56,046 bases of DNA. Origin: a virus (lineage: Duplodnaviria; Caudoviricetes). The stretch covers positions 1 to 56,046 of IMG/VR virus record IMGVR_UViG_3300032281_000106; one strand, written 5' to 3'. How positions within the stretch are numbered: position 1 is the stretch's first letter; the number at the start of each line of letters is the position of its first letter. The notes below the pieces were generated by a model that did no database searches, was not told the DNA's origin, and saw only the letters and a list, made by a program, of their open reading frames with translations. This document shows positions 1 through 56,046 of the stretch, in pieces. The translations under genes were made by a program, and so were the position numbers.

Positions 1-23
1 AAACAATGGCTGCCAGGCTTCGC
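1..23. repeat. Terminal overlap of circular assembly (copy 1)
   Basis: aaacaatggctgccaggcttcgc matches 56024-56046 (aaataatggctgccaggcttcgc) at 22/23 nt. Confidence 0.9.
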
Positions 24-837
24 TGCTTGACAGGGGCTGTGTGAGGTCTGCAAATTTGCCTGCGCTAAACATCTCAGAATTTTTCGGCAGTTTGACCCTC
101 CAGAGCACGTTCCGAGAACGGTGAGGATATAAGGGGGCAAATATAGTTGCCAAGTAATTGCTGTCGTAGTAATCACGCAAGCGGCTGAACACTGAATCGA
201 GATCATCTTTGGCGATCATTTCCTTGTAGTCTTTGATTGAGGCAAAAGTGCCAAAGTGGTCGTCAACTTCAAGGCCTACCTTGTGCAGCATCAGCTGCAT
301 CACTTCGTAAGTCATCTCATTGACGTGGTTGTCTGCTGCACCAACTTGTGGGTCATAGACAGGGGTAGACAAGAAGGCAACACCGTCATCTGTCAAGCGT
401 TCACGAATACCTTCCAGCATCTTGTAGGCGTGCAACGGCTCAACGTGCTCAAGGACCTCAAAGCTTGTGATGACGTTAAACTTCTCATGAGGCAGCTTGC
501 AGTCTGGGAAGGCCACGTTGCCAATCAGAGTGGGCTTGAACTTTGTGTTCTCAAAGGCCTTAGGCATTTCCAGCTTGTTGTAGTCAATGCCGATATAGTC
601 AAGACCGTCAGAAGCCATGCGGCTTGTCATAAGCATCTTGGCCAATGGTACGTCTTTGCCGCAGCCAATGTCAAGCAGCTTGCAGTCCTTGCGGTGCTTA
701 GGGTTTCCCATCCACTTGGCCACGTGGGTCCAACGTAGACAGTGGGCAATGTAGTCACGGTGAATGAAACCGCGCTCTTCCGCCTGATCGATGCTCAGGT
801 GGGTATTGTCAATGGATTTTCCTCTGGCGTTTGCCAT
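1..837 (-). CDS. Class I SAM-dependent methyltransferase (~284 aa; last 5 codons and stop at 56023-56006 across the junction)
   Basis: Manual translation from ATG at 837: MANARGKSIDNTHL...KLLDIGCGKD (motif I)...YIGIDY...FNVITSFEVLEHVEP...LSTP; open to base 1; AGGAG RBS upstream. Confidence 0.88.
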   Translation of the reverse strand, partial: MANARGKSIDNTHLSIDQAEERGFIHRDYIAHCLRWTHVAKWMGNPKHRKDCKLLDIGCGKDVPLAKMLMTSRMASDGLDYIGIDYNKLEMPKAFENTKFKPTLIGNVAFPDCKLPHEKFNVITSFEVLEHVEPLHAYKMLEGIRERLTDDGVAFLSTPVYDPQVGAADNHVNEMTYEVMQLMLHKVGLEVDDHFGTFASIKDYKEMIAKDDLDSVFSRLRDYYDSNYLATIFAPLYPHRSRNVLWRVKLPKNSEMFSAGKFADLTQPLSSSEAWQPLF

Positions 838-860
838 AAATTCTCCTAGAGTGGGAAGGT

Positions 861-876
861 AGGGGCCGAAGCCCCT
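861..876 (-). other. Intergenic cUUCGg hairpin without U-tract
   Basis: Minus strand AGGGGC-TTCG-GCCCCT just after the DUF932 stop. Confidence 0.7.
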
Positions 877-881
877 GGGTT

Positions 882-1868
882 TTAGACTGCTTCAGCGAAC
901 TCGACAGCAAGGTCAAGTGCTTGGCGTTTACGAGTTGCTGCTGAACCAAACCACGCGCTTGTCAGACGCTTGTCTTGATCAGTTCCAGCGACGTGATCGT
1001 AGTAGTACGTCACGGCGTTGAAGGCGCCCCACCAAGTGCCGGCTGAGGTCTTCAGATCAGCGCCTGGTTGAGTGTGCACGATGTCGAGCAAACGGTTGAC
1101 CGTACGGCCAAGGTCTGCGCGATTGACTTGACCGTCTTCGGAAGCAATCAATGCTGCTTGATACTGGTCTGGGTTGACAAGCTTGGAGAAGAATTCCATG
1201 ACTTGTTGATCTTTGGCGCGTTTCTTAGACAAGAACTCGGCTTGCTGCTTGAACACGTCAAGCGACTTCATTGCAAGGCCAACTTTTTCCGCTGCAGTCT
1301 GCTTGATCTCATCGTCAAACGCGCGATCGTGCGACATGCGAAATGTGTTCTCCTTGTTTTTATTATCGCGAAGTGCGGCCGTCAGCGTGTTATTGCAGAC
1401 GACGCGGATTGGCGTGAACATGATCTGCAAGCTGCGGCCCCAGATGTGCGGATTGTCGAGCAAGATGTAGCCTTCGACTTCGTCTTTGCCGCCCAACATA
1501 AAGCCGCCGTTAATCTTTGCAAGGCCCCAAACACGCTTGCCGCCATGAAGAGAACCTGCAGTCTCCATCTTCATGTCGCCGGCTTTGCAGAACTTGTCAA
1601 AGAACTCAAAGACGTCTTGGTTTTGTGTAGGTGTGTAGTCGCTGCCGCAGACGCCAAGGATCTTGCTGTCTGTGTCGCGCACCAAAGCAAAGTGGCTGCT
1701 CAACACGTGGTCGAGTTCGTCGACGACCAAAGCTTTCTTCTTGACTTGCCAGTTGAGTCCAGCTGCTTCGAGCATCTGGGCAGGAGTCAAGTTGTCAGCG
1801 ACAGGGGTACCAAGGCCGTGCCAAGGGGTCTCATTGGCGTAAGCCATCGTTTCAACTTCATGTGACAT
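882..1868 (-). CDS. DUF932-family phage/plasmid protein
   Basis: MSHEVETMAY..PWHGLG, ETAGSL.GG..VW, TPIRVVCNNTL, GTWWGAFNAVT signatures. Confidence 0.85.
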   Translation of the reverse strand: MSHEVETMAYANETPWHGLGTPVADNLTPAQMLEAAGLNWQVKKKALVVDELDHVLSSHFALVRDTDSKILGVCGSDYTPTQNQDVFEFFDKFCKAGDMKMETAGSLHGGKRVWGLAKINGGFMLGGKDEVEGYILLDNPHIWGRSLQIMFTPIRVVCNNTLTAALRDNKNKENTFRMSHDRAFDDEIKQTAAEKVGLAMKSLDVFKQQAEFLSKKRAKDQQVMEFFSKLVNPDQYQAALIASEDGQVNRADLGRTVNRLLDIVHTQPGADLKTSAGTWWGAFNAVTYYYDHVAGTDQDKRLTSAWFGSAATRKRQALDLAVEFAEAV

Positions 1869-1924
1869 GATAAATACCTTTCTTCTTTCTGTTTATGCAA
1901 GCAGGATTGCTGTGCATGAGTTAG

Positions 1925-1953
1925 ATTCTAGTGCGTAAAACCACGCAGCGCGC
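1925..1953 (-). promoter_or_regulatory. Putative early promoter GCGCGC-N17-TAGAAT (copy 1)
   Basis: Same hexamers and spacing as 44528-44556 and 44601-44629; upstream of DUF932. Confidence 0.7.
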
Positions 1954-1995
1954 ACTTTTTTGCAAATAAATGCTATCACTTATACCAGTTAGGCT

Positions 1996-2159
1996 CAAAA
2001 TCCCTATAGAGTGATTCTAGAGCCATAACAGAGTGTATCAGTTTAATTAAAATCAATTCTACTACTCGTTCGCTCGATAGCATAAGTCTCCGCGAAGACA
2101 AAACAGAGAATACTAGTACACTCTGTTATGGTCTAGAAACTCATCTATAGCGTTTTTGG
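1996..2159. repeat. ~165 bp element with imperfect terminal inverted repeats (copy A)
   Basis: ctatagagtg..ctag..ccataacagagtgta ... tacactctgttatgg.ctag..tcatctatag; second copy at 40921-41086. Confidence 0.85.
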
Positions 2160-5100
2160 ATTTGAGCCAGACCGCCTCTGGCCTTACGGGTAAGAGCCTC
2201 TTGGTCTGTTACGCGGAACCAGTTGCCGACGCCGCCAGATCCTCCAGCCGGTCTTTCGTAGCCAGAGAATCCTCCAGCCTTAGCAATGCCTTCCATTACG
2301 AAGTCCTTGCCTTGCGCGGTATCGTAGATCTCTTCGCCGGTCATAGCCTTGCCTTCTGGCAGCTTGCCAAAGAATCTGCGCATCAGCTTGACATCTTCTG
2401 GGCTGTAGGTCTCTTCAAAGCGAAGCATCTTGGCTGCAGGTACGTCAAACTTGTTGATCATGGGAGGACCCATTTGACCAAACTGAGTCATCTTGTCTTG
2501 AGCCCGCTTAATCGCGTAGCCTTGGTCAGTCGTGACGTCTAGATTCTTTTCCCTGTCTAACCGGATGCGGCTAGGACCCCCATGGAGGACCCGTAGGACC
2601 TTTTCCGAAGCTTCCTTGAGTTTCCCTACTCGCCCACCTTCTTGGAAGCCCTGGGGAGCCGTAGGAGGTTCCTTAGGTTGTTCTTCTTCAGCTGGGGCAG
2701 GTGCAGGCGCCGCAACAGGGGCAGCTGGAAACATCTGTTGAGGAACTTGCGTAGCACCCAGGCCAATGGCTGGAGTTGCAGCAAACAGCTTCTGACCTTC
2801 TGTCGTGATCTTTTCCTTCATCTGAGGAGTGACGTCAACCGAGAAGGCGCGCAGTGTGTTGGCTTTACCTGCTTTTTCCATAAGGTTTCGTTCGGCCAAA
2901 GTTCTCAGCGCCAGATCATGGGCGGTATCGATGTGGTTGTCCATCTCGTCCCAAAGCTCGTTATCATAATCGTCCATCCGCATTCCTTCTTGGCGAATGC
3001 CTCTACGCTCCAGCGCTTCAGTTGCCCTACGATGAGCGATGTCTTGAGACATCTCCATAAGTTCCATGGGGTCAGCCTCGTTAATGCTCTGTATCTCATT
3101 CTCAAGATCACGAGTAGTCCAGCTTTTTGGAACAACCTTGCCCTTGACTTCCAAGTAGCCAGTCGGCGCCTTAAATTCCTTGCCTGCGTAGTTTTTAACG
3201 TAAGACGGCAAGCGTTGGTCGTAAAAAGACTTCATGCCTTCGCCGCCAACAGTCAAGTTTTCTCCTTCAATTTTTCCTATTGGAGCAGATGCAGTAGGAG
3301 ATCTTTCGGCAATAATGTCCTTAAGGAATCTCTGAGCGGCTTCTTGCTCGTTTTCATCCAGTGACTCAAAAATGGTATTTCGCTCTCTTGTTCCAGCGTA
3401 TTGCAGCATGTCGTTAAGATCAGCTAAATTTGCATTTGGACCAGCGCGGCTCATGATACCTGAAACAAGGCTTGGTCGAAGACCGTATTCAATGGCAATC
3501 TCTTCCGAATTTGGGCCAAGAGTGTTCTGTGCTAGCCAAGTGTTGTACCTTTGTTCAAGTTCAGCTTGAATTCCCTGACCTGCTGGAGTATCATCAACAC
3601 CTTGCTCCCAATCATGGACAAATCGCTCAAGCCAATTGCGTTGCTCGAGATCCAAAGCCTCATAGTTGGAGTACAGCAATTCGTCGGCACTCATCTCTGG
3701 CATCGGCTGGCGTCCAAAAGGCGTTATCTTTTTAGTTTCAGGACCTACTTGGGAAGCTAAGGCCTGAGCTTGAGCCTCAATGTCTCTGGCTATCTGGCCT
3801 CCAAACACCTCCGATAGTGTTTTTCCATCAGCTGCTCCACTAACAAACGTGTCTTCAAGAGCTTTTCCATCAAAAACAACTCTGTCGCCCTTTTTACCTT
3901 GAACAAGCAAATACCCGTCAGCAGTTGGAGAAAACTCGATTGAGTCAACTGCCTGACGTAAACCTTGTGAATAGCGATTGATCTGCTCAATACCAGGAGA
4001 GAACGCAACCTTGTCGTAGCCTTCCTTAGCTGCCAAGTCTAAGATGTCCTTGACTGCAAGCTCGTGCCAGTTCTTCTTGAATGGGGCATCAGGAACCTTG
4101 CGTTCAATCTTGCCTGCTTCTTGAGTCAGTTGATTTTTAATATCGTTTTCTGGCGATGTCATGTGCGTTCTTGGCTGAGCACCTTTGCGAGGCTCCCCAG
4201 TTTTTGGATCTACTTCAATGACTGTAACAGACCAGTTGTCTCTGACTTCATCAAGGGCTCTTTTTTTGGCCCAGTTTGAAGCAACCTCCTCGCTAACGCC
4301 AGCGTTCATTGCCTGCTCAAGTTTGCGTTCGTAAGCAATCTTAAAGGCAGGAGAGCTTTCACCGGAGTTAAAAGAGAGCACTTTGTCTTGATCCCCCCGA
4401 CTGTTAACAATTTTTCCTGGCGTAAAGTACTCTTGAATCTCGTTATAGCTTAGACCTTCATCTCGAATGCGTTGAACTTTTTCGTTAAGTTGCCTAAGTT
4501 TTTGACTGTCTTCGGCTGTCCTATAGCCCGCCTCTTCAGGGACCTCTTGTTCGAGTTGAGCTTTACGCTCCTTCATTAAGCGATTAAAGACGGATGTTAT
4601 TTTTGTTTTATTTTCATTAGTGAAATCGGTGGCCCCGACCTCATCAAGTGCTTTTTGACGAAGGGCGCTGCGTTCTGAGTTCAAGCGTTCTTTGATTTCA
4701 GACTTACGAGCATCACGGCCTTTTTGGTGCCAGTCAGATTGGATCTCGTCAACGTACAAGACTTTCTCGCCATTAGGGCCTTCCATGTCAGAGACGCGAT
4801 AGTGAGCCAAGACGTCAGGCTGGTCATAGTGGCTTGCTGTAAATTGCTGGCGAGTCATGCTGAGACGGTCAAGCAAAGAATCAATCTCCTTGTTGACAGC
4901 AGCAGCTTCTTCATCTGTAGCAGGAGTGCTTTTCATAAGCTCGTCAATGCGCTGACCCATTGCGCCGGCACCAGGGACTCTGTCTTCTTGGTTTTGAAGC
5001 AAGATCTCGCGATAGTTATTCTGGCCCTTGCTCTTGCTATACTGACTAAATTTTGTGCGAGTTTTTTCAAGAGCCAAATCAAATTGTTCTTCTGCTTCTA

Positions 5101-6292
5101 CGGCAGCCCGTCTTATGTTTTGAAGAAGATACGCGTCTTCAGGATCAAGCTTTCCTGTTTCTGGGTGAACTGGAATTCCAAGCTGCTGTGGGTCCATATT
5201 GCGTACGTCACTTGCGCTAAGAATTTCGCCTGTTTCAGGATGATAAAAACCTAATGCCTTGCCATCATTTGGGCTAACAACCGGCTGAATGTTTAATTCT
5301 TCAAGAGCGTTCTGAAATCTTTTTTCAAGACGAGGTTGCCATTCAGGATCTACACCTTGTCCAAGCTTGATTCGCTTAGGAATTGGCGGCTTGTTAGCCT
5401 TAATCGTCTTTTGCAGTTCTTCTTGAGTGATCTTAGGAGACGCCATCAACTTTTGCTTGATACCACGAGATTCAAGTTCCTCTGGCTTAATGCCAGGAGT
5501 GGTCTCAAGCTGCTTAAGGATCTGCTCGCCAGTTCCCTTCTTTTGCTTCAGCGTGTTGATCGCCTTGTCAACAGCAGAGAAGAACGTGGCAACCTTGCCG
5601 ACCTTGCCGCCGTCTTCGTACTTTTGGATCAGGCCGCCCAAAGCTTTTTTGACGGGGTCTTCAGACAAGGCTTCGCCCACTGTTCCCATGGTTCCGCCAA
5701 ACGTGGTTCCAATGCCATAGTTGAGGGCTCTTGGATCAACGGTAGGAGACAGGTACTCGATAGGAGCTGCTGCAACCTTACCAGCCATACCCATCTTCTT
5801 GGCTCCACCAATGATCTTGTTCATCAAGGCGCCTGGAACCGGCAACTGACCAAGCATCTCGCCGCCAGCATAGGAAAAGTGTTCAAGAGCCCCTTTAGGC
5901 TCATTGATACCCATGTCCTTGCGAACAGCTTCCTTGATTTTGCCCGCTTTTTTGTCTGCCGCAACAGCAAAGTCTGGGGCGTACTTTTCATCTATAACGC
6001 CTGCAATTGCAGGGATTGCGACGGTGTTGTAGTAGATGCCAGGAGTTCCTTTGCCAATGCCGACCTTGCCTTCATCGTCAAGGCCAGACCACTGGCTTTT
6101 GAAACCAGCAACCGCTTGGCTAATAGCACTTTGGGCCGTGTCAGGGCCCTCACGCTTAGCTCGTTTGCCAGACTTAGGGTAGATACCGAAGGCCGCTTTG
6201 TCAGAGCCCTCTAGCGTCTTGGCCAGTTCACGAATGTCCTTGGCCTTGTTCCCTTTTTCGTACTTCTTTTCGAGTTTGTCAAGATCACTCAT
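2141..6292 (-). CDS. Large polyvalent/ejected virion protein (~1383 aa) with possible C-terminal ART-like domain
   Basis: Likely start MSDLDK at 6292 overlapping the upstream stop; NYREILL, SHYD..VLAHYR..VDEIQSDWHQ, PDAPFKK.W, GMKSFYD blocks typical of large phage polyvalent proteins; last gene of the virion module. Confidence 0.65.
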   Translation of the reverse strand: MSDLDKLEKKYEKGNKAKDIRELAKTLEGSDKAAFGIYPKSGKRAKREGPDTAQSAISQAVAGFKSQWSGLDDEGKVGIGKGTPGIYYNTVAIPAIAGVIDEKYAPDFAVAADKKAGKIKEAVRKDMGINEPKGALEHFSYAGGEMLGQLPVPGALMNKIIGGAKKMGMAGKVAAAPIEYLSPTVDPRALNYGIGTTFGGTMGTVGEALSEDPVKKALGGLIQKYEDGGKVGKVATFFSAVDKAINTLKQKKGTGEQILKQLETTPGIKPEELESRGIKQKLMASPKITQEELQKTIKANKPPIPKRIKLGQGVDPEWQPRLEKRFQNALEELNIQPVVSPNDGKALGFYHPETGEILSASDVRNMDPQQLGIPVHPETGKLDPEDAYLLQNIRRAAVEAEEQFDLALEKTRTKFSQYSKSKGQNNYREILLQNQEDRVPGAGAMGQRIDELMKSTPATDEEAAAVNKEIDSLLDRLSMTRQQFTASHYDQPDVLAHYRVSDMEGPNGEKVLYVDEIQSDWHQKGRDARKSEIKERLNSERSALRQKALDEVGATDFTNENKTKITSVFNRLMKERKAQLEQEVPEEAGYRTAEDSQKLRQLNEKVQRIRDEGLSYNEIQEYFTPGKIVNSRGDQDKVLSFNSGESSPAFKIAYERKLEQAMNAGVSEEVASNWAKKRALDEVRDNWSVTVIEVDPKTGEPRKGAQPRTHMTSPENDIKNQLTQEAGKIERKVPDAPFKKNWHELAVKDILDLAAKEGYDKVAFSPGIEQINRYSQGLRQAVDSIEFSPTADGYLLVQGKKGDRVVFDGKALEDTFVSGAADGKTLSEVFGGQIARDIEAQAQALASQVGPETKKITPFGRQPMPEMSADELLYSNYEALDLEQRNWLERFVHDWEQGVDDTPAGQGIQAELEQRYNTWLAQNTLGPNSEEIAIEYGLRPSLVSGIMSRAGPNANLADLNDMLQYAGTRERNTIFESLDENEQEAAQRFLKDIIAERSPTASAPIGKIEGENLTVGGEGMKSFYDQRLPSYVKNYAGKEFKAPTGYLEVKGKVVPKSWTTRDLENEIQSINEADPMELMEMSQDIAHRRATEALERRGIRQEGMRMDDYDNELWDEMDNHIDTAHDLALRTLAERNLMEKAGKANTLRAFSVDVTPQMKEKITTEGQKLFAATPAIGLGATQVPQQMFPAAPVAAPAPAPAEEEQPKEPPTAPQGFQEGGRVGKLKEASEKVLRVLHGGPSRIRLDREKNLDVTTDQGYAIKRAQDKMTQFGQMGPPMINKFDVPAAKMLRFEETYSPEDVKLMRRFFGKLPEGKAMTGEEIYDTAQGKDFVMEGIAKAGGFSGYERPAGGSGGVGNWFRVTDQEALTRKARGGLAQIQKRYR

Positions 6293-9200
6293 TGTCGAGG
6301 CTCCGCATGATGCGTTGGATTTTTGCTTCGTCATCCTCATCTTCAGGAGGAGCTTCTGGCTCTTCGGCTACCATGCGGGTTGTTGGAGCAGCAGCGCCAA
6401 CCGTTCCGGAAACTGTTTTGAGTCGACGGGCGGATGTGTTCTTGTCTTCGAGGAACTTGGCGCTGCTGGATTCTAGGCGCTTCAGGGTGTCATCAACCTC
6501 CTGAGTTGTACCTGACTTGAGCATCTTGGCCACTTCGCCTGCGGTCTTCTCGTCAAGCGTTGTACGAGCCTGCAAGTATTTCAAGACGCGTCCAACGACA
6601 GAGCCTGGGGAACCTGACGCAATGTCCACAGCTTCTCCTGCAATGTCGAAGATACCGTTGCCGGCCTTCAAGTCTTTTAAGGCTTCTGTCTTGTTGGCTG
6701 TCCGGCTGCCACGGACAATGTCTTGGGCATTACGGAACAACTCCGACTCGCGCTGGAGAGCTGCCTCAAACACCTTGTACTCGTTTGGATCTTGGAACAA
6801 GGCTTCTAGACGTTTACGTGTTGCAGGGGCTCCTATGATCCTCTGGGCCGCGTTAATTTGCTGCGGAGAGTCCATAACCTTGGTCAGGAGTGACTGGGCC
6901 ACGCCAGCGCGCAAGGCGTCGCGTTCGGCTTCAGACATGCCGTTAACCAGTTTCTTGGCTTCGTTTGGCAGCATCTTAGGCGACAGGTAATCTGTACGGC
7001 CCAGACGGAGCGCGTCTAGAACTTCCATGTCGCCGGCATATTTGGCTCTGGCTGCAGCGTACTCAGGCACGTTCTCGTCGATCACACCAATGTAAGCCTT
7101 GCGAAGATCCTTGAGGGCATTAGCTTCTGCCTTGCCCATGCCTTCGCCCTTATAGCCTTTGTCAATCAGCGCATCGATGCCGCGCTTGATGTAGTCAAGT
7201 GTTCTGACGTCAGGGATCTTGCCAACGCTAATCATGTTGCCGTCTTTGTCCAAGTCGTAAATGTCATTCAGCTTGAAGCGGCTTGGATCTTCTCCGCGGA
7301 GTTCTGCTGCGCGTGCTTCTTTGCTGGAGATGGCCTGGGCCTCCTTGAAAGCTTTCTTGAAGGTATCATCCTCCAAGACCTTCAGGATACGGGTATCATC
7401 AACTGATCCGTGGGCATAGGCAGTATCGTAGAGGTTGTTGGCGTTAGAACGCAAGGTTCCTACCAGCTTGTCTTCTTGTGCGGTGTAGTCAACGCCCTTG
7501 CCAATGTCTTTGAGGGCGCGTGATGCAGCGGCTTCGCGTCCGCCTTCCAAGCGCTCATTCAAGCCCTGGCCAAGAATCTTGCGACCTGATCCTGGGCGAG
7601 TCACTACAGCTTCGCCAAGGGTTGACAAGGATGGAGTTGCATCCATGATTGTGGACTGAACGCCAAGCTTCTGGTCTGCCAGCATCTTGGCTTTAAGAGC
7701 CGTAGGGTCCATTTCGTCCCTGCCCATAGCTTCCAATACCTTATTGGTTGCGCGTTGCTCTACGGCCCCTGGGGATGGTTTGAACGCGTTCTTGACAGCC
7801 TTCGCACCTTGACCTGCGACCTGGATAGTCTTTGCAACTGCTGGACCAAGGACAGCTCCTGTTGTGCCTCCGCTCATGGCACCAGAACCACGTTCGCCTT
7901 CAACAGCAGAACCTGCACCTGCAATCGCTCCGGTTGTTGCGCCTGCACCAGCTGCCCTGCCCATCGAGCCAGTCATAAATTTTGGCATGTATTGAGACAG
8001 CTTGCTTGCAGCCATTCCCATGCGGCCAGCTCCCATGACGGCGCCAGGTGTTCCGGCTCCGGGGATCATGGCCATGCCGATGGTTGGGATTGCACCAGAA
8101 ACTAGTTCGGTGCCAAGTGCAACAAACGGATTCTTTTCCTGGAAGCGCTGGTAAGCTTCGCGTTCTTCTTTGACCACTTCTTCGTAAGGACGACCTTCCA
8201 TCTTGGCGCGAACACGAGCAATCGCCTCGTCACCAAAGCCAAGGCCTAAGCCCTGACCAACAGCGCGGCCAATGTTTGCCATCGACATCTCACCGCCATT
8301 GGCCATGTGGACTATTCCGCCCTTGGCCTTCTTAACGAGTTCGCGATCAAAAAACTTATGCTCGCCTTGATTTCCCTTGCGGCCATATTGACCGTAAGTT
8401 GCAATGCCCTCAGGACCGCCCAAGTACTTACGCATCATTTCAAGCATCTCTGGGGAATAAGGCTGCTTGCTTGTGTTGACAGGTGGTATAACAGTGGGGG
8501 TAGTGGTTGTTGTTTTATTACCGGTGGTGGTAGTGGTTGTTTTATTACCAGTGGTCGTAGTCACAGGAGTCGGCTGGGACTGAGTGCCTCCAGCTGCTGT
8601 GTAGCGCTTGCTAACGTCTTGCCAAGGAAGACCTGTTGTTGCAGACATTTGAAGCGTGCCAACACCAAACTGGTTCATGGCTGCTGCAATTTCCTTGTCC
8701 GTAGCTCCAGGATTATTCTTCAGCCAGTTGTTTACGTCAGCATTGGTGTATTTAGGAGCAGCTGCGTCGTAACGCTTTTGAACGTCTCCTAAGTTAAGAC
8801 CAGTCACCCTTGCCATCTGAAGGGGAGACACGTTGTACTGGTTCATTGCAAAAGCAATGTCTTGGTCAGACGTGCCTGTATTCTTGCCCAACCAGTCTTT
8901 GACTAGGTTGTCGCCAATGGGTTGACTTGCAGCAGCGTAACGCTTTTCTACTTGATCTAATCCAAGGCCAGTTGCACTTGCCATTTGAGAAGGATCAACG
9001 TCATACTTGTCCATGGCCGCTGCAATCTGGTAATCCGTCAAGCCAGGATTTGAATTCAGATAATCAATGACTTCCTGATTGCTAACTCCTGCAGGAGCAG
9101 AAGGTGCGGGGGCTGTTGCAGCGTCATAGCGACTTTGAACGCTTCCAAGATCAAGACCAGTTGCCCTGGCCATCTGAGAAGTGTCAACACCAAACTGGTT

Positions 9201-46276: not shown

Positions 46277-47781
46277 AGGTCGAAGTATCTTTGCGTGCGT
46301 GGTGTGATGATGTGTAAGTTCTTCTTGGTTCTGGTGGCTGCAACGTAGAACACTCGAAGCTCGTCGTCTTGATTCTCTTGGTAGCCGATGTAGGTCTTAG
46401 GGCTCATGTCAGTGATGAGCAGCACGTTGTCTGCCTCGCCACCCTTGCTGCCATGGATCGTGCTGATGGTGATGCGGGGATCCCCTGACAAAGACTCACC
46501 TTGTCTTAAGGCCGCCAGGAAGTATTCCTTCTCCTCGTCGCTGATGCGGTCAAGGGCCACGTGCCAGATGGCTTTAGTCTGCAGCCCGTACTTCTCATGC
46601 AGCAGATCCATGTTGACCATGTCTTCTGTCAGCGTCTTCAAGGACAGATGGCCGTGATCGACCATCCGCTTTGACATGTGAGCATAGACCAGCTTCAACT
46701 GATCTGCTTGAATGAACTCACCCTTGCGAAGCTTCTCCCATGACCTGATGGCAAGCAACGCCTCAGACTTACGAGGGCTCATTCCTTGACACTCGTAGGC
46801 ATAACCCTCACGATGGCATAAGTCAACCAATTCCTTGAGCATATAGACATTCCTAGCAAGCAGGAGCCATGTTCCTTGGCCCATATCGACGTGCTCTATG
46901 TCGTTGTGGTATGTTATTGATCCTTGATGAGTAGCAGGTTTAAATGTTTTCTCACGACGCCGAGTGACTGATCTAATGATGTCAAAGCTGAGGTCGTGCA
47001 CAACCGCCGGTATTCGGTACGACTGGTCAAGAACCCGCACATCCCCATCCAAGGCGATGAAATGATCGATGTCAGCTCCTGCCCAGCGAAAGATTGCTTG
47101 GTCATCGTCTCCAGCGATGTAAGTTTCATCGGCCTTCTCCATCATTCTTTCAACTACCATCCATTGCAGCCTTGATAAGTCTTGTGCTTCATCCACTAGC
47201 AGAGCTTTTAACTTAGGCACGTGGCCTTCTGACCGCATCAACTCAAGCATGTCGGTGTAATCGATCAGGCCTTGGTTGTCCTTGTACTCTTTTAATGCCT
47301 TGCCAAACTGTTCCAGCTCAAACCAGCCAAGGTCATCGTCATTCAACTCTTCCCACTGCTGCTTAAGTGGCACGCACCGGATCCTTGCCATGCCCTCAAC
47401 GAAGCGCAGCTTATCGCCTTGCGCCATGCCAACCAGGGTTCCATCCTCACCAGTCTGGCGGCCCGTGATCTCAATGCCTAGCTCATCGCAAAGTTCTTGA
47501 TAGTGGTTGTGCTGCATGACCTGCTGCCTACTAAGTCCTAGCTGCCTGAACGCCAGGCTGTGGATCGTCCGGAAGAATGGCATCTGCTCGACAGCAAAGC
47601 CAAAGCGGGCCCGTGCCTTATCCCTGGCCTCTGTCGTAGCCTTCTTGGTAAAGCTGATGAAACCAATCTCATCAGGCTTAACACCCTTCTCCAGCAAAGA
47701 CTCGACGATGTTCATGAGCGTCGTGGTCTTGCCGGTTCCGGGCGGACCCAAGATGATGTTGGGCTTAGATGAGGCTGCCAT
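46273..47781 (-). CDS. UvrD/Rep-like SF1 helicase
   Basis: GPPGTGKT, TIHSLA, VDEAQD, GDDDQAIF.W.GA, TIHGSKGGEAD, FYVAATR; likely start MAASSK. Confidence 0.9.
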   Translation of the reverse strand: MAASSKPNIILGPPGTGKTTTLMNIVESLLEKGVKPDEIGFISFTKKATTEARDKARARFGFAVEQMPFFRTIHSLAFRQLGLSRQQVMQHNHYQELCDELGIEITGRQTGEDGTLVGMAQGDKLRFVEGMARIRCVPLKQQWEELNDDDLGWFELEQFGKALKEYKDNQGLIDYTDMLELMRSEGHVPKLKALLVDEAQDLSRLQWMVVERMMEKADETYIAGDDDQAIFRWAGADIDHFIALDGDVRVLDQSYRIPAVVHDLSFDIIRSVTRRREKTFKPATHQGSITYHNDIEHVDMGQGTWLLLARNVYMLKELVDLCHREGYAYECQGMSPRKSEALLAIRSWEKLRKGEFIQADQLKLVYAHMSKRMVDHGHLSLKTLTEDMVNMDLLHEKYGLQTKAIWHVALDRISDEEKEYFLAALRQGESLSGDPRITISTIHGSKGGEADNVLLITDMSPKTYIGYQENQDDELRVFYVAATRTKKNLHIITPRTQRYFDL

Positions 47782-49338: not shown

Positions 49339-49575
49339 TTAACCGCCCCGCGTCGCAGCTTTCAACGGACTATTTGTCACGTGATCCGTCTGCGCTGCCA
49401 CCTTGACCTTCTTCACGGCAGCGCGCTTAAAGGTTGACTTCTTAGCCTTACCTTTCATCGCGCCATCCTTGTGCTTACGGCCAGGGCCTTTTTTAGTAGC
49501 ACTTGGATTCCGATCGTCTGTCTTGCCAAGGTTCATACCAAGGCTGGGGAAAATATCCTTAATAAGGGACATCAT
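49339..49575 (-). CDS. Small Lys-rich hypothetical protein
   Basis: ~78 aa, ATKKGPGRKHK. Confidence 0.5.
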   Translation of the reverse strand: MMSLIKDIFPSLGMNLGKTDDRNPSATKKGPGRKHKDGAMKGKAKKSTFKRAAVKKVKVAAQTDHVTNSPLKAATRGG

Positions 49576-50329
49576 CTTCCCCTGCGGCCGGTGCATCAGC
49601 TGGCGGCTCAGCAACTTTCACAAGTCCTGCAGTCACGTCTTGACCAAACTTCTTGGCTGCGTCATAGATGCCGCGATCTTGCACCATCGCCGGATCATTG
49701 ATCAGCCAGCCATACCAACTGTTTGCGTCCTTAGTCTCCATGCCGGTTCCCAAGTGGTAGCTGTGGCTAAACGGTGGAGGTGTGAACGACTTGTCGCCAA
49801 CCTTGACTTGCAAGGCCATCATCTGACCAAGCCAGCGGCGTGACTTCTTCAACTGCGTTGAAGACATAGCGATCAAGGCGCGTTCAAAGCCGCCATCAGA
49901 CAACACCAAAACGTAGTGATAGGCTGTAGTGACAATCAGGTTGCCATTGGCCAACACATCTTGGTTGCGTTCGTTCTTCTTGGTCTTCTCGAGGATCTTC
50001 TCGTCAGTCCACTCTTTGACCAAACCGCCACCAGCTTCGCGAGGAGTCCACTCGACGTAGCTCTTCTTGAAAGCGCAAGGGATGACGCGGACTTCTTTCA
50101 TCAACTGGCCTGTTACGGTGTTGATAATCAAGCCCTCTTCAGCACCAGCAACTTTGGTGACTCCACGAAGTTCAGGCGATAAAGCCTGCAGCACCTTGAG
50201 GTACGGGATAGCGACATCGTTTGCTGACACGTTCTCGAAACCGAGACCAGCGTCTGCCATCATGTCGTCTGCAAATGCCACAAGGGCGGTCGGCTGCTGT
50301 ACAGCCACTTCAGTTTTCTTAACCATCAC
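49559..50329 (-). CDS. Putative single-stranded DNA-binding protein
   Basis: IPYLKVLQALSPE, YVEWTPR..GGG, MSSTQLKKSRRW; acidic tail EDDVPY. Confidence 0.6.
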   Translation of the reverse strand: MMVKKTEVAVQQPTALVAFADDMMADAGLGFENVSANDVAIPYLKVLQALSPELRGVTKVAGAEEGLIINTVTGQLMKEVRVIPCAFKKSYVEWTPREAGGGLVKEWTDEKILEKTKKNERNQDVLANGNLIVTTAYHYVLVLSDGGFERALIAMSSTQLKKSRRWLGQMMALQVKVGDKSFTPPPFSHSYHLGTGMETKDANSWYGWLINDPAMVQDRGIYDAAKKFGQDVTAGLVKVAEPPADAPAAGEDDVPY

Positions 50330-50874: not shown

Positions 50875-51184
50875 TTCTGACTCCTGTAAGGTCCGCCTCA
50901 AGGGCGTAGTAACGATGCTCCTGGCGATCCCATTTCAGCATCTTGATCTTGCCACTGTTAAAGCCAGCAGCAATTGCGACGGACATACCAATGGCAATGG
51001 GGTCACCAATAGCCAGTAGAAAATCGCTGTCCGAAAAACTCCTAAGCTTGTCACGTAGGACGCGGATGGTTGGCGCAGTGGCCATCATCACTTGACCTGG
51101 TGGCAGCAATGTTTGTAGATCACCGTATTCCGCTGCAGGCAGCAGGTTAAACTTCGGCGATTCTTGTACGACATAGACTGTCAT
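50867..51184 (-). CDS. Hypothetical protein
   Basis: MTVYVVQE...A.EYG, DFLL.IGDP, LKWDRQ..RY. Confidence 0.7.
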   Translation of the reverse strand: MTVYVVQESPKFNLLPAAEYGDLQTLLPPGQVMMATAPTIRVLRDKLRSFSDSDFLLAIGDPIAIGMSVAIAAGFNSGKIKMLKWDRQEHRYYALEADLTGVRNA

Positions 51185-51588
51185 TGTTTTCCTCCAACTT
51201 GTGCATGACGAACGACATACTCGGTGCAAAAAGGTGGCACGTTAAAAAGCAGGTTGTTCATGTTCTCCCAATCAAATGGCTTTGTACATGACCAGACCTC
51301 AAAGAGATCCATCTCTCGCTGAATCTGGAGTACCTTTAGGACATTTTCGTTGCGAGCGAGTACGAATACACGTCCTCCACTTTCCTGACGCTTACGGTGC
51401 CATAGGATCTGTTCTGGACGTAACTCGCAGTGGCCCTTGGCATCCAATACTTTTAACTCTAGCCAAAGCTCGCTGCCCTCATGGCACATGTTCACGTCAG
51501 GAGTTCCTCTTGTCAAGGCGTTCTCAACGCGTTCCACGTGGCCTGGCAGCTTGCCTTTGACCAGAGCCCAAAACTGGCTCTCTTTCAT
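51181..51588 (-). CDS. PD-(D/E)xK nuclease (VRR-NUC/resolvase-like)
   Basis: MKESQFW..RVEN...GTPDV...WLELK...LRPEQ..W. Confidence 0.75.
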   Translation of the reverse strand: MKESQFWALVKGKLPGHVERVENALTRGTPDVNMCHEGSELWLELKVLDAKGHCELRPEQILWHRKRQESGGRVFVLARNENVLKVLQIQREMDLFEVWSCTKPFDWENMNNLLFNVPPFCTEYVVRHAQVGGKQ

Positions 51589-53447
51589 AACTTCACCTCC
51601 ACTGCTTCTCCCCAATTGGGCCCAAGCTCGCAATCTACTTTCAATGGCACGACTAAGTCCACGCATGTCAACATCTCCTGACGAATCATTCGGGCATGAT
51701 CTAAGTCCCGTACACTGAAGTCCAATTCATCGTGGATAGTCAGATGAGGGACTTCGCCTTTTTTAAACAAGTTGATCATGGCCATCTTGATCATGTCTGC
51801 TGATGACCCCTGGATCACAGCATTCATCGCCTTGTGAACAAAGTAACGCTTCAGAGGCAAACCATACTTATCTTCGGCCAGATCTTTCTTGAGTGGAATT
51901 AGACCTGGGCTGTACTTAGGTGGCCCAAACAACTGGAACCTTCGGCGGCGTCCTAAGAACGTCTTAACATAGCCACGGTTAGTCGCAATCCGCGTGCATT
52001 CCTCGCCAAGAGCCTTAATGAATGGCACGTTGGCATGGTATTGCTCGTAGACGCGTTTGGCTTCTGCTGGTGGCAAACCCAGTTGAGTTGCAGCCTTAGC
52101 AGCACCCATACCATAGGCCAATCCAAGGTTCAACGTCTTCGCGTTCTTTCGAGTGATTCCAGCCATGTCTGCAACCAGTTGATGGTAGTCAGTATCAGGA
52201 TCGTCCAGGTACCTATTGCGCGCAGTCTCAGCCCCAGGGAAATTTCGTAAGTAGCTGTAGTGAACCGTGACACGAGGCTCTTGTTGCGAGTAGTCAAAAA
52301 CTCCCCATTGGCAACCTTCTTCTGGTACAAAGATGCTTCTGATAAGAGGCGCCAGCACCGGATCTCTTGCAGGTACCTGCTGCATGTTTGGATTAGCCGA
52401 CGCAAAACGGCCAGATTTAGTTCCGCCACGATCGTCGCGAACCTGTCGAAAGGTCGGGTAAATTTTGCCATCTTTTTCCATCTGAATGATCTTGCTATCG
52501 ATAAATACTCCACCGGCCCGGTCAAGCTTCCGGACCTTCGAAATTAAGGAGAAAAATTCATGTTCACTAGCTTCAAGAAACTCACTGGGAAAACTAGCAT
52601 TCCCCTTTTCAGTCTTTGGGTAATCCAGCTTCAATGCGTCACTGGCTGCCTGTATATCATCACCAGACCAGATGTCTATGTCCCGCTCAGCAACCTTCTT
52701 CAGTTGCTCCATGAGCTGGCCTTGCTCATCAAGTAGTTGAGCCTTGACTTTGTGGGCGCGATCAAGGTCCACAGGAACGCCACGTTGACGCATGGCAACC
52801 AGTACGTCGACCAATTGCGTCTCGATGTCAAAGACTTCCCACAGCTTCTCGTCGTGCAGCAAGACTTCTTGTTGGGCAAAGATGCGAATGGGCAAGTCTG
52901 CGTCCTTGCGTCCGTAAGGTGCCACCTCACTTGCGTGAAATTGCCAAAGGTTTTCCTTGACCTTACTTGGATGGATGCCGCGCCTGACCGCTGCTGCAAT
53001 CAATGCCGTCTCGTCTTTGTGTTCTCCAAGGTAGGCTTCTGCAAGAGCATCAAGCCTATAGGTAATGCGATCCTCGTCAAGCAAAGGTTCTGCGATCTGC
53101 ACGTCATACTTAGCGCCTCCGACTTTGACATTCTCTGTCAGCAACCATTCCAAGTCGTAGGGCAAATTCGCGCCCACCTTTGGAATGTCTGTCTTCAGCA
53201 TGTCACGAAGCCAAGCAAACGCATTGTCAGGGTTTAGGTTTCCACCTGCTGCATGGCGCACCGGGTAGTACTCAGCAAAGCCATCATCTGTAGCAACAGA
53301 GAATCCAACGATATAGCCGTCTTTTCTTACGCCACCAGGACCTTTAGTCATTAAGTTCGGGTCGCGCGTCTCGCAATCGATAGCTATGCGCTTTGCTAAC
53401 AGCAGGTTGGGAAAGTGCTTCGGCGGTTGATATGATGATTCGTCCAT
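51585..53447 (-). CDS. polA: Family A DNA polymerase with 3'-5' exonuclease
   Basis: AIDCET (ExoI), N..YD, SGRFAS.NPNMQQVP, DYSQQEPR (A), KTLNLGLAYG (B), IHDEL (C). Confidence 0.95.
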   Translation of the reverse strand: MDESSYQPPKHFPNLLLAKRIAIDCETRDPNLMTKGPGGVRKDGYIVGFSVATDDGFAEYYPVRHAAGGNLNPDNAFAWLRDMLKTDIPKVGANLPYDLEWLLTENVKVGGAKYDVQIAEPLLDEDRITYRLDALAEAYLGEHKDETALIAAAVRRGIHPSKVKENLWQFHASEVAPYGRKDADLPIRIFAQQEVLLHDEKLWEVFDIETQLVDVLVAMRQRGVPVDLDRAHKVKAQLLDEQGQLMEQLKKVAERDIDIWSGDDIQAASDALKLDYPKTEKGNASFPSEFLEASEHEFFSLISKVRKLDRAGGVFIDSKIIQMEKDGKIYPTFRQVRDDRGGTKSGRFASANPNMQQVPARDPVLAPLIRSIFVPEEGCQWGVFDYSQQEPRVTVHYSYLRNFPGAETARNRYLDDPDTDYHQLVADMAGITRKNAKTLNLGLAYGMGAAKAATQLGLPPAEAKRVYEQYHANVPFIKALGEECTRIATNRGYVKTFLGRRRRFQLFGPPKYSPGLIPLKKDLAEDKYGLPLKRYFVHKAMNAVIQGSSADMIKMAMINLFKKGEVPHLTIHDELDFSVRDLDHARMIRQEMLTCVDLVVPLKVDCELGPNWGEAVEVKL

Positions 53448-53841
53448 TTTTTATCCAGAGTTGTTTTGCTTCTTGATGGGGATATTCCGCAGCGTAAACA
53501 ATGCGTTTGCAGCCTGTGTTTAGAAGCAGCTTCATACACGTCATGCAAGGCAATAAGGTTACATAAGCCGTGTCTATAGCTTCCACGTCTTTACACTGGA
53601 GGAGCGCGTTTTGTTCCGCATGAATAGCTTCACATACATCCAGGCCAGTCCCCGAAGGCAGAGCAGCACCGGGACAGCGAACGTCAATGCAATGAGTATG
53701 ACCGCGAGGCACCCCGTTATAACCAGTACTGAGAATATGCCCACGAGCAGATATGAAAACGCAGCCCACACTCCGCCTAGCGCAAGTGGCTCTTCGAGCA
53801 ACGAGTAAAGCCAATTCCGAAAAGTATTCATCTCTATTCAT
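53344..53841 (-). CDS. dCMP deaminase family protein
   Basis: C.RR.VG, TGYNG, HAEQNA, PCMTC; start MNRDEYF (ATGA overlap). Confidence 0.9.
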   Translation of the reverse strand: MNRDEYFSELALLVARRATCARRSVGCVFISARGHILSTGYNGVPRGHTHCIDVRCPGAALPSGTGLDVCEAIHAEQNALLQCKDVEAIDTAYVTLLPCMTCMKLLLNTGCKRIVYAAEYPHQEAKQLWIKNGRIIISTAEALSQPAVSKAHSYRLRDARPELND

Positions 53842-54632
53842 CCTTTCCATGTTGATAATTCCTTTAGAAAACCGTTGTGCACATGGCCATGAGCCAGCGT
53901 CCACAGATGATTGACAAGGTGGTCGTAGTCATTGAAGTAATCAAGATCAATAGGCTCATAATCGCCGAGGATCTCGCCATTCAAGCAAGCATCAACCTTG
54001 TACCAGTTGTCTTCGTACAGGTGCTGGCTTGCTGCATAGAAGTGCAACGAGCCAAGCCGAACATTTACACCTTTCTCACGCAGCAACAAAGCTACGCCAG
54101 CTGACAGCATACTAAAGTTGAACCAGTCGTAAGGTACGCCAAGCCAAGCATCAGAGGAACGCATGTTCATGAAGCAATGGATCCTGCCATTGCGAATGAC
54201 AAACTGGCAACTGATGGTACATGGGATGTCTTTTGAAGCACGAGGGTTTGGCCGCCAAATGGTAATGACAGCTTGACGAGAGTCAGGATCTTCGAGTAAG
54301 GCTTGAAGTACATGGCCCAGTTGGTCGCGTATCCTTGGGCCGTAGGCTCCAAAGAAGAGGATGCCGTCATCAGAAAAGTTGCTGATTGCTTTACTAAACG
54401 GGGCGATTGTGCTGACGCGGTTATCGCCTGACATGATCCAAGCTGCCTCAGCAGCCATAAACTTGTAGCCAAGATTGCGCTCCTTGATAGTGATGACAGG
54501 CTGGTTCATGTCGATCATCGACTTCATGCCCATCAGTTCTTTTGTCTTTTTGCCTCTTGGGCTTGTTTCAATGCCAGCGTTCATGATGACATCAAGCAAG
54601 CCTTGCCAGTTCATGTTTGTCGTATTAACCAT
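53838..54632 (-). CDS. Thymidylate synthase-family enzyme, probably dCMP (hydroxy)methylase-like
   Basis: AYGPR, DSRQA, DIPCT, MRSSDAWLGVPYD, SQHLY. Confidence 0.85.
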   Translation of the reverse strand: MVNTTNMNWQGLLDVIMNAGIETSPRGKKTKELMGMKSMIDMNQPVITIKERNLGYKFMAAEAAWIMSGDNRVSTIAPFSKAISNFSDDGILFFGAYGPRIRDQLGHVLQALLEDPDSRQAVITIWRPNPRASKDIPCTISCQFVIRNGRIHCFMNMRSSDAWLGVPYDWFNFSMLSAGVALLLREKGVNVRLGSLHFYAASQHLYEDNWYKVDACLNGEILGDYEPIDLDYFNDYDHLVNHLWTLAHGHVHNGFLKELSTWKG

Positions 54633-55617
54633 TTATGGCCTCCCTAAGTTCTTGAAGAAACTCAGCGCGTTTGTTGAAGCGCTTTGCATAAGATGGATGC
54701 ATGACCTTGCAGATCCTGCGTGTGAATTCAGTCATGGTACCAAAGGCACCATTGCCAAGGCAGATGACCTTCATGTAAGGCTTAGCGCGCAAGCAATCAT
54801 TGACGTACAACGGGCCATTGCCATCATGCGCATTGATGTAGACAGCGCGTGTCTCATCAAAGTTAAGCTCATGCAACGCGTCTGCAAAGAACTCGCTGCA
54901 ATTAGCAAAGTCGTAGAAGGGCCAGCTGACTGCACGCATCTTGCTGTTAGCCTTATCGCCAACAAAGATGATCTTTGCTTCATGCAAGTGACCTGCAAAG
55001 TTTTTAGTGTGCAGATGCAAAGCTGGTTCATACTGCTTCATCCAGCGTGATTCGAGGACAGAATAGATCATGCCAATGTAGACATCAAGATTGCGTCCTT
55101 CGACGTCATACCTGTAAGGCAGCACGTCATCACGGCGGCGCATACCAAAGACAGACAGTTGCTGAACATAGTCGCGATCATGGCCAGGAAAGCCACCTTC
55201 AAACAACATGTCAAAGCGTTCACGTACACGATCGACGTTGTCGTACATCTCGTCGCGTTCTGACTTCAGCTGCTCAAACTTTTCTGCATGGTTAGCTGGT
55301 GATTGAGCCAAGATGTAGACACCACCGACTTTGCGGATAATGCGATCCATCGTGCGACCCATGTGAGGCCAAGGGCTGCCACCACGATACACGTCTGCAT
55401 AGATGGCTTCACTCATCCACAAACGATCAATGACCACAAGCCTTGTACGTGCAAGCTTTAATGCACGATGAAGCGCGGCTGTATGGTACAGCGGCATCTT
55501 AGTTGGCCAGCGGTATGTGTTGTGAATGTAGACACCATCAAAACGATCGCAAATAGCTTTAGCAAGCGTAGTCTTGCCTGTTCCATCACAACCATCGATG
55601 ACAATAATGCCTTTCAT
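54625..55617 (-). CDS. dNMP kinase fused to uracil-DNA-glycosylase-like domain
   Basis: IDGCDGTGKTT and VIDR..SE.IY (dTMP-kinase-like); C-terminal IIFVGDK..WPF..YINA..VICLG..A..HPSY. Confidence 0.7.
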   Translation of the reverse strand: MKGIIVIDGCDGTGKTTLAKAICDRFDGVYIHNTYRWPTKMPLYHTAALHRALKLARTRLVVIDRLWMSEAIYADVYRGGSPWPHMGRTMDRIIRKVGGVYILAQSPANHAEKFEQLKSERDEMYDNVDRVRERFDMLFEGGFPGHDRDYVQQLSVFGMRRRDDVLPYRYDVEGRNLDVYIGMIYSVLESRWMKQYEPALHLHTKNFAGHLHEAKIIFVGDKANSKMRAVSWPFYDFANCSEFFADALHELNFDETRAVYINAHDGNGPLYVNDCLRAKPYMKVICLGNGAFGTMTEFTRRICKVMHPSYAKRFNKRAEFLQELREAING

Positions 55618-56003
55618 TCTTTCTCCTTTCTGATGAGGTCCGTAAGCGTTGGAGCCACGAATCCTGCAGGTTTCACTATATCATAGGTAGACCCACGTTT
55701 ACTATCTTCTGTCCTTAAAGCGCGCACTTTTTTCATGTTCGCATCGTGAACCCGCTTAAAGCCTTCGTTAAACGGCAGACCGGCTAAGTAGGCAGCCCCA
55801 AGGGCCACGTACACTAAGTCAATCAGGCCGTCAAAATACTCCTCAAGGTTGCCATTGATTGCTGAGGCCCTGATCTCGTTCAGCTCTTCTTGCAGGTGAA
55901 CGTTCTTGAGTTCCCAGATCTCCCTCACCGGAAAGTCAGGCTGGTTCGTAGGTTCCAGTCCGAACTTCTGATGAAACTCTGCCACCATCTGCGTCAGGTC
56001 CAT
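55614..56003 (-). CDS. MazG-like all-alpha NTP pyrophosphohydrolase
   Basis: V.EFH.KF, LQEELNE, DGLIDLVYV..G, RVH.ANMKK, KP.GF. Confidence 0.85.
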   Translation of the reverse strand: MDLTQMVAEFHQKFGLEPTNQPDFPVREIWELKNVHLQEELNEIRASAINGNLEEYFDGLIDLVYVALGAAYLAGLPFNEGFKRVHDANMKKVRALRTEDSKRGSTYDIVKPAGFVAPTLTDLIRKEKE

Positions 56004-56005
56004 GC

Positions 56006-56046
56006 TTACTCTCCAAGGTAGTCAAATAATGGCTGCCAGGCTTCGC
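56006..56046 (-). CDS. 3' end of the junction-spanning methyltransferase
   Basis: Reads EAWQPLFDYLGE*, in frame with 1-837. Confidence 0.85.
   Translation of the reverse strand, partial: EAWQPLFDYLGE
56024..56046. repeat. Terminal overlap (copy 2)
   Basis: 22/23 identical to 1-23. Confidence 0.9.

Follow-up and report, generated by a model that had tools for sequence, protein, structure and literature searches.

Base modifications of phage DNA decide escape from restriction, CRISPR and other nuclease defences, and they have also yielded epigenetic sequencing tools. The 5-hydroxymethylcytosine (5hmC) pathway of phage T4 uses the deoxycytidine triphosphate (dCTP) hydrolase gp56, the deoxycytidine monophosphate (dCMP) hydroxymethylase gp42, the deoxynucleoside monophosphate kinase gp1 and the dCMP deaminase Cd, with alpha- and beta-glucosyltransferases for tailoring. 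To our knowledge, the decorations of 5hmC described so far are glycosylation and carbamoylation. On MetaGPA metavirome contigs a carbamoyltransferase, shown to decorate the 5hmC hydroxyl, co-occurs with thymidylate synthase (TS) homologue, PRA-PH and dCMP deaminase domains (PMC8670742), so that a hydroxyl-tailoring enzyme beside such a module has a precedent. The window analysed here is the whole 56,046-nucleotide IMG/VR record IMGVR_UViG_3300032281_000106, from a virus of the Caudoviricetes. It encodes a module with the same logic and enzyme classes as that of T4, in which an all-alpha nucleoside triphosphate pyrophosphohydrolase (NTP-PPase), a TS homologue with residues D143/C146/D169/D177, a P-loop kinase and a dCMP deaminase are all present. 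Where T4 has glucosyltransferases, the sole recognisable tailoring enzyme here is an S-adenosylmethionine (SAM)-dependent methyltransferase, MTase, whose gene lies at the contig end. MTase is a phage-specific class I SAM-dependent methyltransferase with a site that, judging by conserved residues, resembles those of the metal-dependent O-methyltransferases HEN1 and UbiG, and it is probably a functional part of the cytosine-modification module.

The MTase gene is almost certainly genuine and has been cut in two by the linear representation of the contig. Its parts are:

1..837, minus strand: codons 1-279 of the MTase coding sequence, recognised by open reading frame, Pfam and alignment
56006..56023, minus strand: the last five codons of MTase (DYLGE) and its TAA stop, read across the junction
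56024..56046, no strand assigned: a 23-nt copy of window positions 1-23, an assembly overlap with one mismatch (position 4 / 56027)
842..847, minus strand: AGGAGA ribosome-binding site, 4 nt before the ATG, read directly

The sequence-only reading had described an open reading frame (ORF), said to be absent from the track, with LLDIGCG and SFEVLEHV motifs, that runs through a 23-nt end overlap and stops 2 nt before a MazG-like gene; the ORF, its motifs, the overlap and the stop proved correct, and the strand, which that reading left unstated, is minus. From its ATG at 837, just downstream of AGGAGA, the ORF reads 279 codons to window base 1 with no stop, and the two motifs begin at residues 54 and 125. 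The two end copies are identical save for the C versus T at position 4, which on the minus strand gives TTG or TTA, both leucine and thus synonymous in the MTase frame, as claimed. Continuing from 56023, the frame adds D-Y-L-G-E and a stop (56023..56006), for a full length of 284 aa, where homologues typically have 283-285 aa; 2 nt later comes the ATG, at 56003, of a 129-aa MazG-like ORF. The plus-strand ORF at 256..738 is a shadow of the MTase gene.

The junction itself, for which the earlier reading had asked for independent support, is borne out by related contigs. The gene is interior in 20 related IMG/VR contigs, and in two of them (L005 and L006, 99% amino acid identity) it is a single uninterrupted 284-aa ORF with the same C-terminus, ...EAWQPLFDYLGE, followed by 2 nt and the ATG of the next gene. 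On a third, L026, window positions 100..1 map to 7738-7837 and positions 56023..55951 map from 7838 onward, so that the two window ends are adjacent. Logan contigs from three runs in two studies also span the junction, with short sides of 31, 38 and 108 nt, the first of which may derive from the source sample. IMG/VR classes the record as linear, without end repeats and 100% complete, and registered no end repeat because the 23-nt overlap is imperfect. The assembly is circular or circularly permuted, with strain microdiversity at the joint, and related contigs read through it. Strong purifying selection acts on the gene, since the ratio of nonsynonymous to synonymous substitution rates is 0.027-0.131 in 10/10 comparisons with relatives.

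MTase is a single-domain protein with no other Pfam domain and no RNA-binding domain. It scores 50.5 bits with Methyltransf_23, where the cut-off is 27, and Methyltransf_12, Methyltransf_31 and Methyltransf_11 also score above their cut-offs. The best NCBIfam model is UbiG (TIGR01983), and identification as UbiG was rejected because the 39.2 bits lie far under the equivalog cut-off of 102.95; the JGI label "2-polyprenyl...benzoquinol methylase" on homologues is an over-annotation. The family is large: at E<=1e-3, 1722 of 2259 candidates are homologues, and 723 representatives of 50% clusters match as well. Its nearest Atlas clusters are 95-100% viral, and the 11 loci found in 185,579 species genomes all lie in contigs of metagenome-assembled genomes (MAGs), most of them phage-sized. 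Members occur in freshwater metagenome runs and in soil-isolated phages.

Invariance and motifs were scored on a family alignment of 76 members. Twelve residues are invariant (D28, C59, E127, E130, H131, S157, P159, H171, E174, G196, F198 and N243), and C59 lies within SAM motif I, LLDIGCG (residues 54-60), where D56, G58 and G60 are nearly invariant. The conserved family blocks are HRDYxAHxxRW, STPxYD, NHVNEMTY, GTFAS and FAPLxPxxSRN, and the window protein carries FEVLEH (E127/E130/H131), HRDYIAHCLRW, STPVYD, NHVNEMTY and GTFAS. When the family profile is compared with solved structures, the top matches are HEN1 (1.3e-10), UbiG (3.6e-10), bacterial Hen1 and HENMT1 (to 1.9e-6), with E127/E130/H131 aligned to the EVIEH of HEN1. 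In the HEN1 structure the EVIEH residues reportedly bind an Mg2+ ion that holds the ribose hydroxyls, and a similar metal dependence may be expected of MTase. The HEN1 match covers only residues 36-164, and the invariant H171, a candidate counterpart of the fourth, His ligand of HEN1, falls outside the HMMER-aligned region. A search of solved structures with the single sequence gave two weak matches, the best with an E value of 0.018. From its conserved motifs, MTase is very probably active as a methyltransferase.

An AlphaFold2 model of MTase (mean predicted local distance difference test, pLDDT, 94.5) has the class I Rossmann-like alpha/beta methyltransferase fold. Fold searches with Foldseek and VIA return a flat plateau of 50 solved class I methyltransferases with Z of 14.8-18, led by ChlM (Z 18.0), with HEN1 at rank 12 (Z 15.9, 18% identity). 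The predicted fold confirms the methyltransferase class and names no substrate. The fold matches are small-molecule and RNA methyltransferases only, and neither the sequence nor the fold matches include a DNA methylase. The sequence-only reading had noted that DPPY/NPPY and PC motifs are missing and had placed the protein with small-molecule methyltransferases rather than DNA methyltransferases. The absence extends to the whole alignment, with (D/N/S)PP(Y/F/W) in 0/76 members and PC(Q/S) in 0/76, and Pfam, profile and fold agree on a small-molecule or RNA type.

On the circular map MTase stands between a DUF932 gene and a MazG-like PRA-PH gene, and is followed by the kinase, the TS homologue, the dCMP deaminase and a PolA-type polymerase. 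The other features of this region are:

862..875, minus strand: GGGGC-UUCG-GCCCC hairpin, lacking a U-tract, that separates the end of DUF932 from the start of MTase
882..1868, minus strand: DUF932 protein, 328 aa, the upstream co-directional neighbour, 44 nt from MTase
55614..56003, minus strand: MazG-like all-alpha NTP pyrophosphohydrolase (PRA-PH, 9.7e-12), 129 aa, a candidate dCTPase
54625..55617, minus strand: 330-aa YorR/thymidylate-kinase-like P-loop kinase with a C-terminal domain like family-4 uracil-DNA glycosylase (UDG) and UdgX
53838..54632, minus strand: TS homologue with D143/C146/D169/D177 (E. coli ThyA numbering)
53344..53904, minus strand: dCMP deaminase (dCMP_cyt_deam_1, 7.2e-22), start codon uncertain
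51585..53447, minus strand: family A (PolA-type) DNA polymerase, the last gene of the compact string

The TS homologue appears to be a cytosine-specific hydroxymethylase. Among solved structures it comes closest to the CMP hydroxymethylase MilA (9.4e-24, versus 7e-15 for true TS), and the Asp of its GVPYDWF motif aligns with the Asp of MilA and the Asn of TS. The residues D143/C146/D169/D177 are present in 89/89 TS homologues that accompany MTase, the window included, and in 6/6 from MAG loci. Weigele and colleagues (PMC13326640) describe that N177D makes a TS dCMP-specific, that L143 correlates with methylated products while an acidic 143 is typical of hydroxymethylating enzymes, and that D169N marks 5-hydroxy-dCMP synthases. 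Annotated phage genes served as calibration: a T4-like dCMP hydroxymethylase (CkP1) reads DCDD at these four positions and the hydroxymethylase for deoxyuridine monophosphate (dUMP) of the ViI-like phage Det7 reads DCDN, and L143 is found in T4 td and in RL38J1 gp166, a canonical rhizobiophage TS. A 5-hydroxy-dCMP synthase was rejected because D169 is kept. An Xp12-like dCMP methylase was downgraded on the acidic residue 143, the lack of dihydrofolate reductase (DHFR) and the hydroxymethylase as best solved relative.

The rest of the gene content agrees with such an enzyme. DHFR, ThyX and a second TS are all missing from the complete genome. A hydroxymethylase does not oxidise its folate, and the absence of these three fits a non-reductive hydroxymethylase. 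With a single TS homologue and neither DHFR nor ThyX, the phage seemingly lacks its own canonical route to thymidine monophosphate. No carbamoyltransferase, GT1/GT2 glycosyltransferase, C5 methylase (PF00145) or N6/N4 methylase (PF01555) was matched in the genome either, which leaves the Methyltransf_23 protein as the sole recognisable group-transfer enzyme. The T4 beta-glucosyltransferase model also found no match, but its control was silent too, so that this absence is uninformative. The two-domain structure of the 330-aa kinase is conserved (alignment of 53 homologues) and holds down to 32% identity; the model of the protein has a pLDDT of 94.1, with Foldseek matches to 2axp, UdgX and the T. 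maritima UDG at 3e-5 to 6e-5. The UDG-like domain has the motifs GD..N...WPF and HPxxAxRF, and one homologue has a precomputed PF03167 match. This presumably pyrimidine-recognising domain may select the modified nucleotide. From these sequences, the module can be read as a T4-like pathway that replaces deoxycytidine with 5-hydroxymethyldeoxycytidine.

MTase keeps the company of this module across related phages. In GenBank, tblastn finds homologues with 32-43% identity in four distinct phages (five records), and in 4/4 the gene lies upstream of NTP-PPase, kinase, TS homologue and dCMP deaminase genes; MTase, NTP-PPase and deaminase were recognised from the annotation, and TS homologue and kinase were found in 4/4 by ORF scan. 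The TS homologues there are annotated as pyrimidine hydroxymethylase, dUMP hydroxymethyltransferase or thymidylate synthase. Of the 80 viral loci found with the family alignment, 75 have a MazG ORF directly downstream of MTase and 71 contain a TS homologue. Wherever at least 3.5 kb of downstream sequence is available a TS homologue is present (65/65 viral loci), which answers in the affirmative the earlier suggestion that MTase should co-occur with the Asp-type TS. Eight of the nine loci lacking TS end within ~1.5 kb of MTase, and the ninth, L098, is a 9-kb fragment. In L098 a 634-aa ORF follows MTase at 6379-8283 in place of the MazG-like gene, and by eye (NPCSE motif) it resembles a class II ribonucleotide reductase. 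When 6 kb of the operon were compared with the phage collection at the DNA level, only short polymerase matches appeared.

The association also holds in more distant loci. In a subfamily with ~35% identity and several gene orders, TS is found in 13/15 loci, and one of those without it has a TS 24 kb off on the same contig. Six of the 11 MAG loci have TS, four others are truncated, and the last is a 306-kb contig with a cytosine-type TS 58 kb away. Counted alongside the 65/65, 12/14 distant-subfamily and 5/6 MAG loci have TS; the three exceptions are L110 and L128, with a cytosine-type TS elsewhere on the contig, and the fragment L105. At 15% and 11% completeness respectively, L098 and L105 are uninformative on the absence of TS. 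The link of MTase to TS, MazG and deaminase genes thus persists to ~33% identity and through rearrangements.

Natural fusions connect some family members to two different activities. One is an MTase::PRA-PH fusion (P0244), and 6/10 of the first long forms scanned are C5-DNA-methylase::MTase fusions (P0242, P0247, P0255, P0262, P0265 and P0267). A further 10 longer family members have no extra Pfam domains. One C5-methylase::MTase fusion (L107, 7980-9899) lies directly after PRA-PH, TS and deaminase genes, and the C5 methylase domain of P0393 keeps its FxGG, PPC and QRRKR motifs. C5-methylase fusions occur in phages that also encode the cytosine-type TS, whose genomes are expected to be C5-substituted. 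The PRA-PH fusion and the lack of a DNA-binding feature speak for action in the nucleotide pool, the C5-methylase fusions for action on DNA. A complex prediction for MTase with the MazG-like protein, prompted by P0244, scored 0.00 in a run that had no controls and is evidence neither way.

MTase may act as the tailoring enzyme of this pathway. In the proposed pathway, dCTP would be cleared by the MazG-like enzyme, the TS homologue would produce 5-hydroxymethyl-dCMP for the kinase to phosphorylate, and the dCMP deaminase would feed dUMP. With SAM as the donor, MTase would methylate the hydroxyl of the 5-hydroxymethyl group, either on the nucleotide or on 5hmC in DNA, and the virion DNA would carry 5-methoxymethylcytosine. 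O-methylation is the most economical role because of the gene's position, the analogy with the carbamoyltransferase and the O-methyltransferase-like polar site. The substrate, the methylated atom and the stage (nucleotide pool or DNA) are those that we infer from these considerations. That MTase specifically O-methylates 5hmC is a tentative assignment, to which we give somewhat less than an even chance. The general form of the proposal, that a large and purely viral family of HEN1/UbiG-like, metal-dependent O-methyltransferases turns 5hmC into 5-methoxymethylcytosine, in the nucleotide pool or, in the lineages fused to a C5 methylase, on DNA, is offered with more doubt than belief. The broader suggestion of the sequence-only reading, that MTase acts on a nucleotide or modified base made by the downstream genes, is supported by these computational tests.

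Several observations weigh against O-methylation of 5hmC. The likeness to HEN1 and UbiG is at the level of the shared methyltransferase core, with the region of H171 unaligned; the E-x-x-E-H motif is common in the Methyltransf_11 and Methyltransf_23 families, and the fold search gives a generic class I plateau in which HEN1 ranks twelfth. The family's median isoelectric point of 6.3 (53/76 members acidic) does not discriminate DNA from nucleotide binding, and gives no sign of the former. The fusions diverge, one kind of partner (PRA-PH) pointing to the nucleotide pool and the other (the C5 methylase) to DNA. Residue 143 is suggestive and not decisive, as the TS of an Xp12-like cassette that includes DHFR carries N143 in place of Leu, and one distal co-occurring TS (L121) also has N143. 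The synteny counts are not independent, most loci being from related phages. The cultured Pelagibacter phage HTVC200P (L136) has a DCDD TS with 50% identity to that of the window and no MTase match, so the module can work without MTase. The literature, in a search that reached few subscription journals and no supplements, contains no report of 5-methoxymethylcytosine as a natural DNA base. The same search found no paper assigning a function to the MTase family. The HTVC200P TS (L136, 5968-6786) bears the annotation of an ordinary thymidylate synthase, and its surroundings include no annotated kinase or deaminase.

The alternative that survives best keeps the pathway and changes the target, which could be N4 or N3 of 5-hydroxymethylcytosine, 5-hydroxymethyl-dUMP made by the deaminase, or another intermediate. 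The synteny and the fusions apply to it equally, the dCMP deaminase is a fixed neighbour that could turn 5-hydroxymethyl-dCMP into 5-hydroxymethyl-dUMP, and the fold matches include N-, C- and O-methyltransferases alike. Against it, the E/E/H/H/E set is invariant although N-methylation does not require a metal site; among the profile matches O-methyltransferases come closest, and the co-occurring TS homologues are all of the cytosine type, with D177. A different target in the same pathway is therefore considered rather unlikely.

MTase could also be an RNA methyltransferase, adding Hen1-like 2'-O-methyl groups to RNA 3' ends or modifying tRNA or mRNA, and placed in the operon for timing only. 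The top profile matches HEN1, Hen1 and HENMT1 are indeed small-RNA 2'-O-methyltransferases, the tRNA enzymes CmoM, Trm9 and CmoA are among the fold matches, PHROG 4752 ("tRNA methyltransferase") matches MTase at 1.9e-10, and a homologue in one metagenomic record is called "capping protein". Both of these names, however, are untested labels, and the protein is a single 284-aa domain that has no RNA-binding domain. Timing would also have to account for a link to TS, MazG and deaminase genes that holds to ~33% identity and in several gene orders, and for the gene fusions. An RNA substrate is accordingly judged distinctly improbable.

A non-canonical orphan DNA methyltransferase, methylating a normal base against restriction and independently of the 5hmC pathway, would make sense of the C5-DNA-methylase fusions in 6/10 of the first long members and of the motifs kept in P0393; fused DNA methylases are common in phages. 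This explanation leaves the exclusive company of the hydroxymethylase-type TS unexplained. It is also countered by the missing (D/N/S)PP(Y/F/W) and PC(Q/S) motifs in all 76 members, by the lack of any DNA methylase among the sequence or fold matches and of a target-recognition domain, and by the mildly acidic isoelectric point, and we regard it as very unlikely. That MTase binds SAM without methyl transfer, as a subunit that regulates or scaffolds a nucleotide-synthesis complex or in other SAM-consuming chemistry, recalls class I folds that have taken on different reactions (the fold matches include SpnF, a cyclase, and CmoA, a carboxy-SAM synthase) and the natural fusion to PRA-PH, but is scarcely credible given a SAM motif and full polar active-site set that are invariant under strong purifying selection, as in an active transferase.

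The claim that MTase heads the nucleotide-modification operon stands as to position only, with no terminator or promoter evidence that would separate the gene from the co-directional DUF932. A scan of window 1-2200 gave no consensus terminator, and no promoter-like site was found in the gap between DUF932 and MTase. Folding of the 71-nt stretch at 830-900 around the hairpin is no better than that of shuffles (z 0.15). A separate transcription unit is not claimed for these reasons. Three sigma-70-like promoter matches lie inside the MTase gene, at 124-167 and 645-674 on the minus strand, and window 1-2200 has six such matches where 1.8 are expected from shuffles. The intragenic matches could be internal promoters for downstream genes or could be due to chance. 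The DUF932 gene is present in 55/80 related viral loci.

Other genes of the window lie outside the module. A trio related to Pam3 gp34, gp33 and gp32 (PF23977, PF23984 and PF23992) occupies 49559-51229 on the minus strand, just downstream of the polymerase region, and an AEP-TOTE-type primase lies at 47765-49288; the Pam3 families are named after a Pseudanabaena phage. Two giant ORFs, at 2141-6340 (1399 aa) and 6285-11498 (1737 aa), both on the minus strand, are at the end of the structural module, and the 1399-aa ORF has no Pfam match.

If the proposed reaction is correct, a methyl ether would be the third decoration of 5hmC, chemically minimal and hard to remove, and undetectable by most of the current chemistries that need a free hydroxyl. 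5-Methoxymethylcytosine would then be an undescribed natural DNA base, and possibly a common one given the abundance of the MTase family. The case also carries a practical warning, since the gene escaped notice by straddling the two ends of a circular assembly that had been linearised; where homologues are called, they are labelled as a ubiquinone-pathway enzyme or plain "methyltransferase". The idea is directly testable, as the module is carried by the cultured phages AXL3 and PW916.

MTase homologues of these two phages, Stenotrophomonas phage AXL3 gp31 and Pseudoxanthomonas phage PW916 ORF63, have 32% identity over 90% of the query, and their genes lie upstream of NTP-PPase, kinase, TS and dCMP deaminase genes as in the window. 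The genome papers name the gene simply as a methyltransferase belonging to the "thymidylate synthesis pathway", with neither a suggested role nor a base analysis (PMC7504290, PMC9414467). AXL3 DNA is reported to be cut by 2/37 restriction enzymes, both with A/T-only sites, and to resist the 35 with G/C in their sites, and the authors suggest that its G/C bases may be altered (PMC7504290).

Among characterized enzymes, HEN1, Hen1 and HENMT1 are the best solved profile matches, and in HEN1 as in MTase the aligned E-x-x-E-H is followed by STP-x-Y. HEN1 has N-terminal RNA-binding domains, whereas the window protein has none, and no curated model assigns MTase to the HEN1 family. The company of MTase is deoxynucleotide metabolism, with no Pnkp or RNA ligase, unlike the setting of Hen1. 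UbiG/Coq3 shares the E-x-x-E-H-V motif, and UbiG O-methylates a hydroxyl on an aromatic ring. CmoM, Trm9 and the cmo5U methyltransferase belong to the same class I fold group and methylate an oxygen on a pyrimidine C5 side chain in nucleic acid. The likeness to CmoM and Trm9 is at fold level only, inside the flat plateau (ranks 23; 15 and 30), and their substrates are tRNA carboxylates, not hydroxymethyldeoxycytidine.

The two closest modules remain those of T4 and of the MetaGPA contigs. The window differs from T4 in its thymidylate kinase/YorR-like kinase with a UDG-like domain, and in the arrangement of the genes as a compact string ahead of a PolA-type polymerase. It differs from the MetaGPA modules in the extra enzyme, which there is a carbamoyltransferase and here is a Methyltransf_23 protein in a genome from which the carbamoyltransferase is absent. 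MTase is a new phage-specific enzyme within the known systems that join a 5hmC pathway to a tailoring enzyme.

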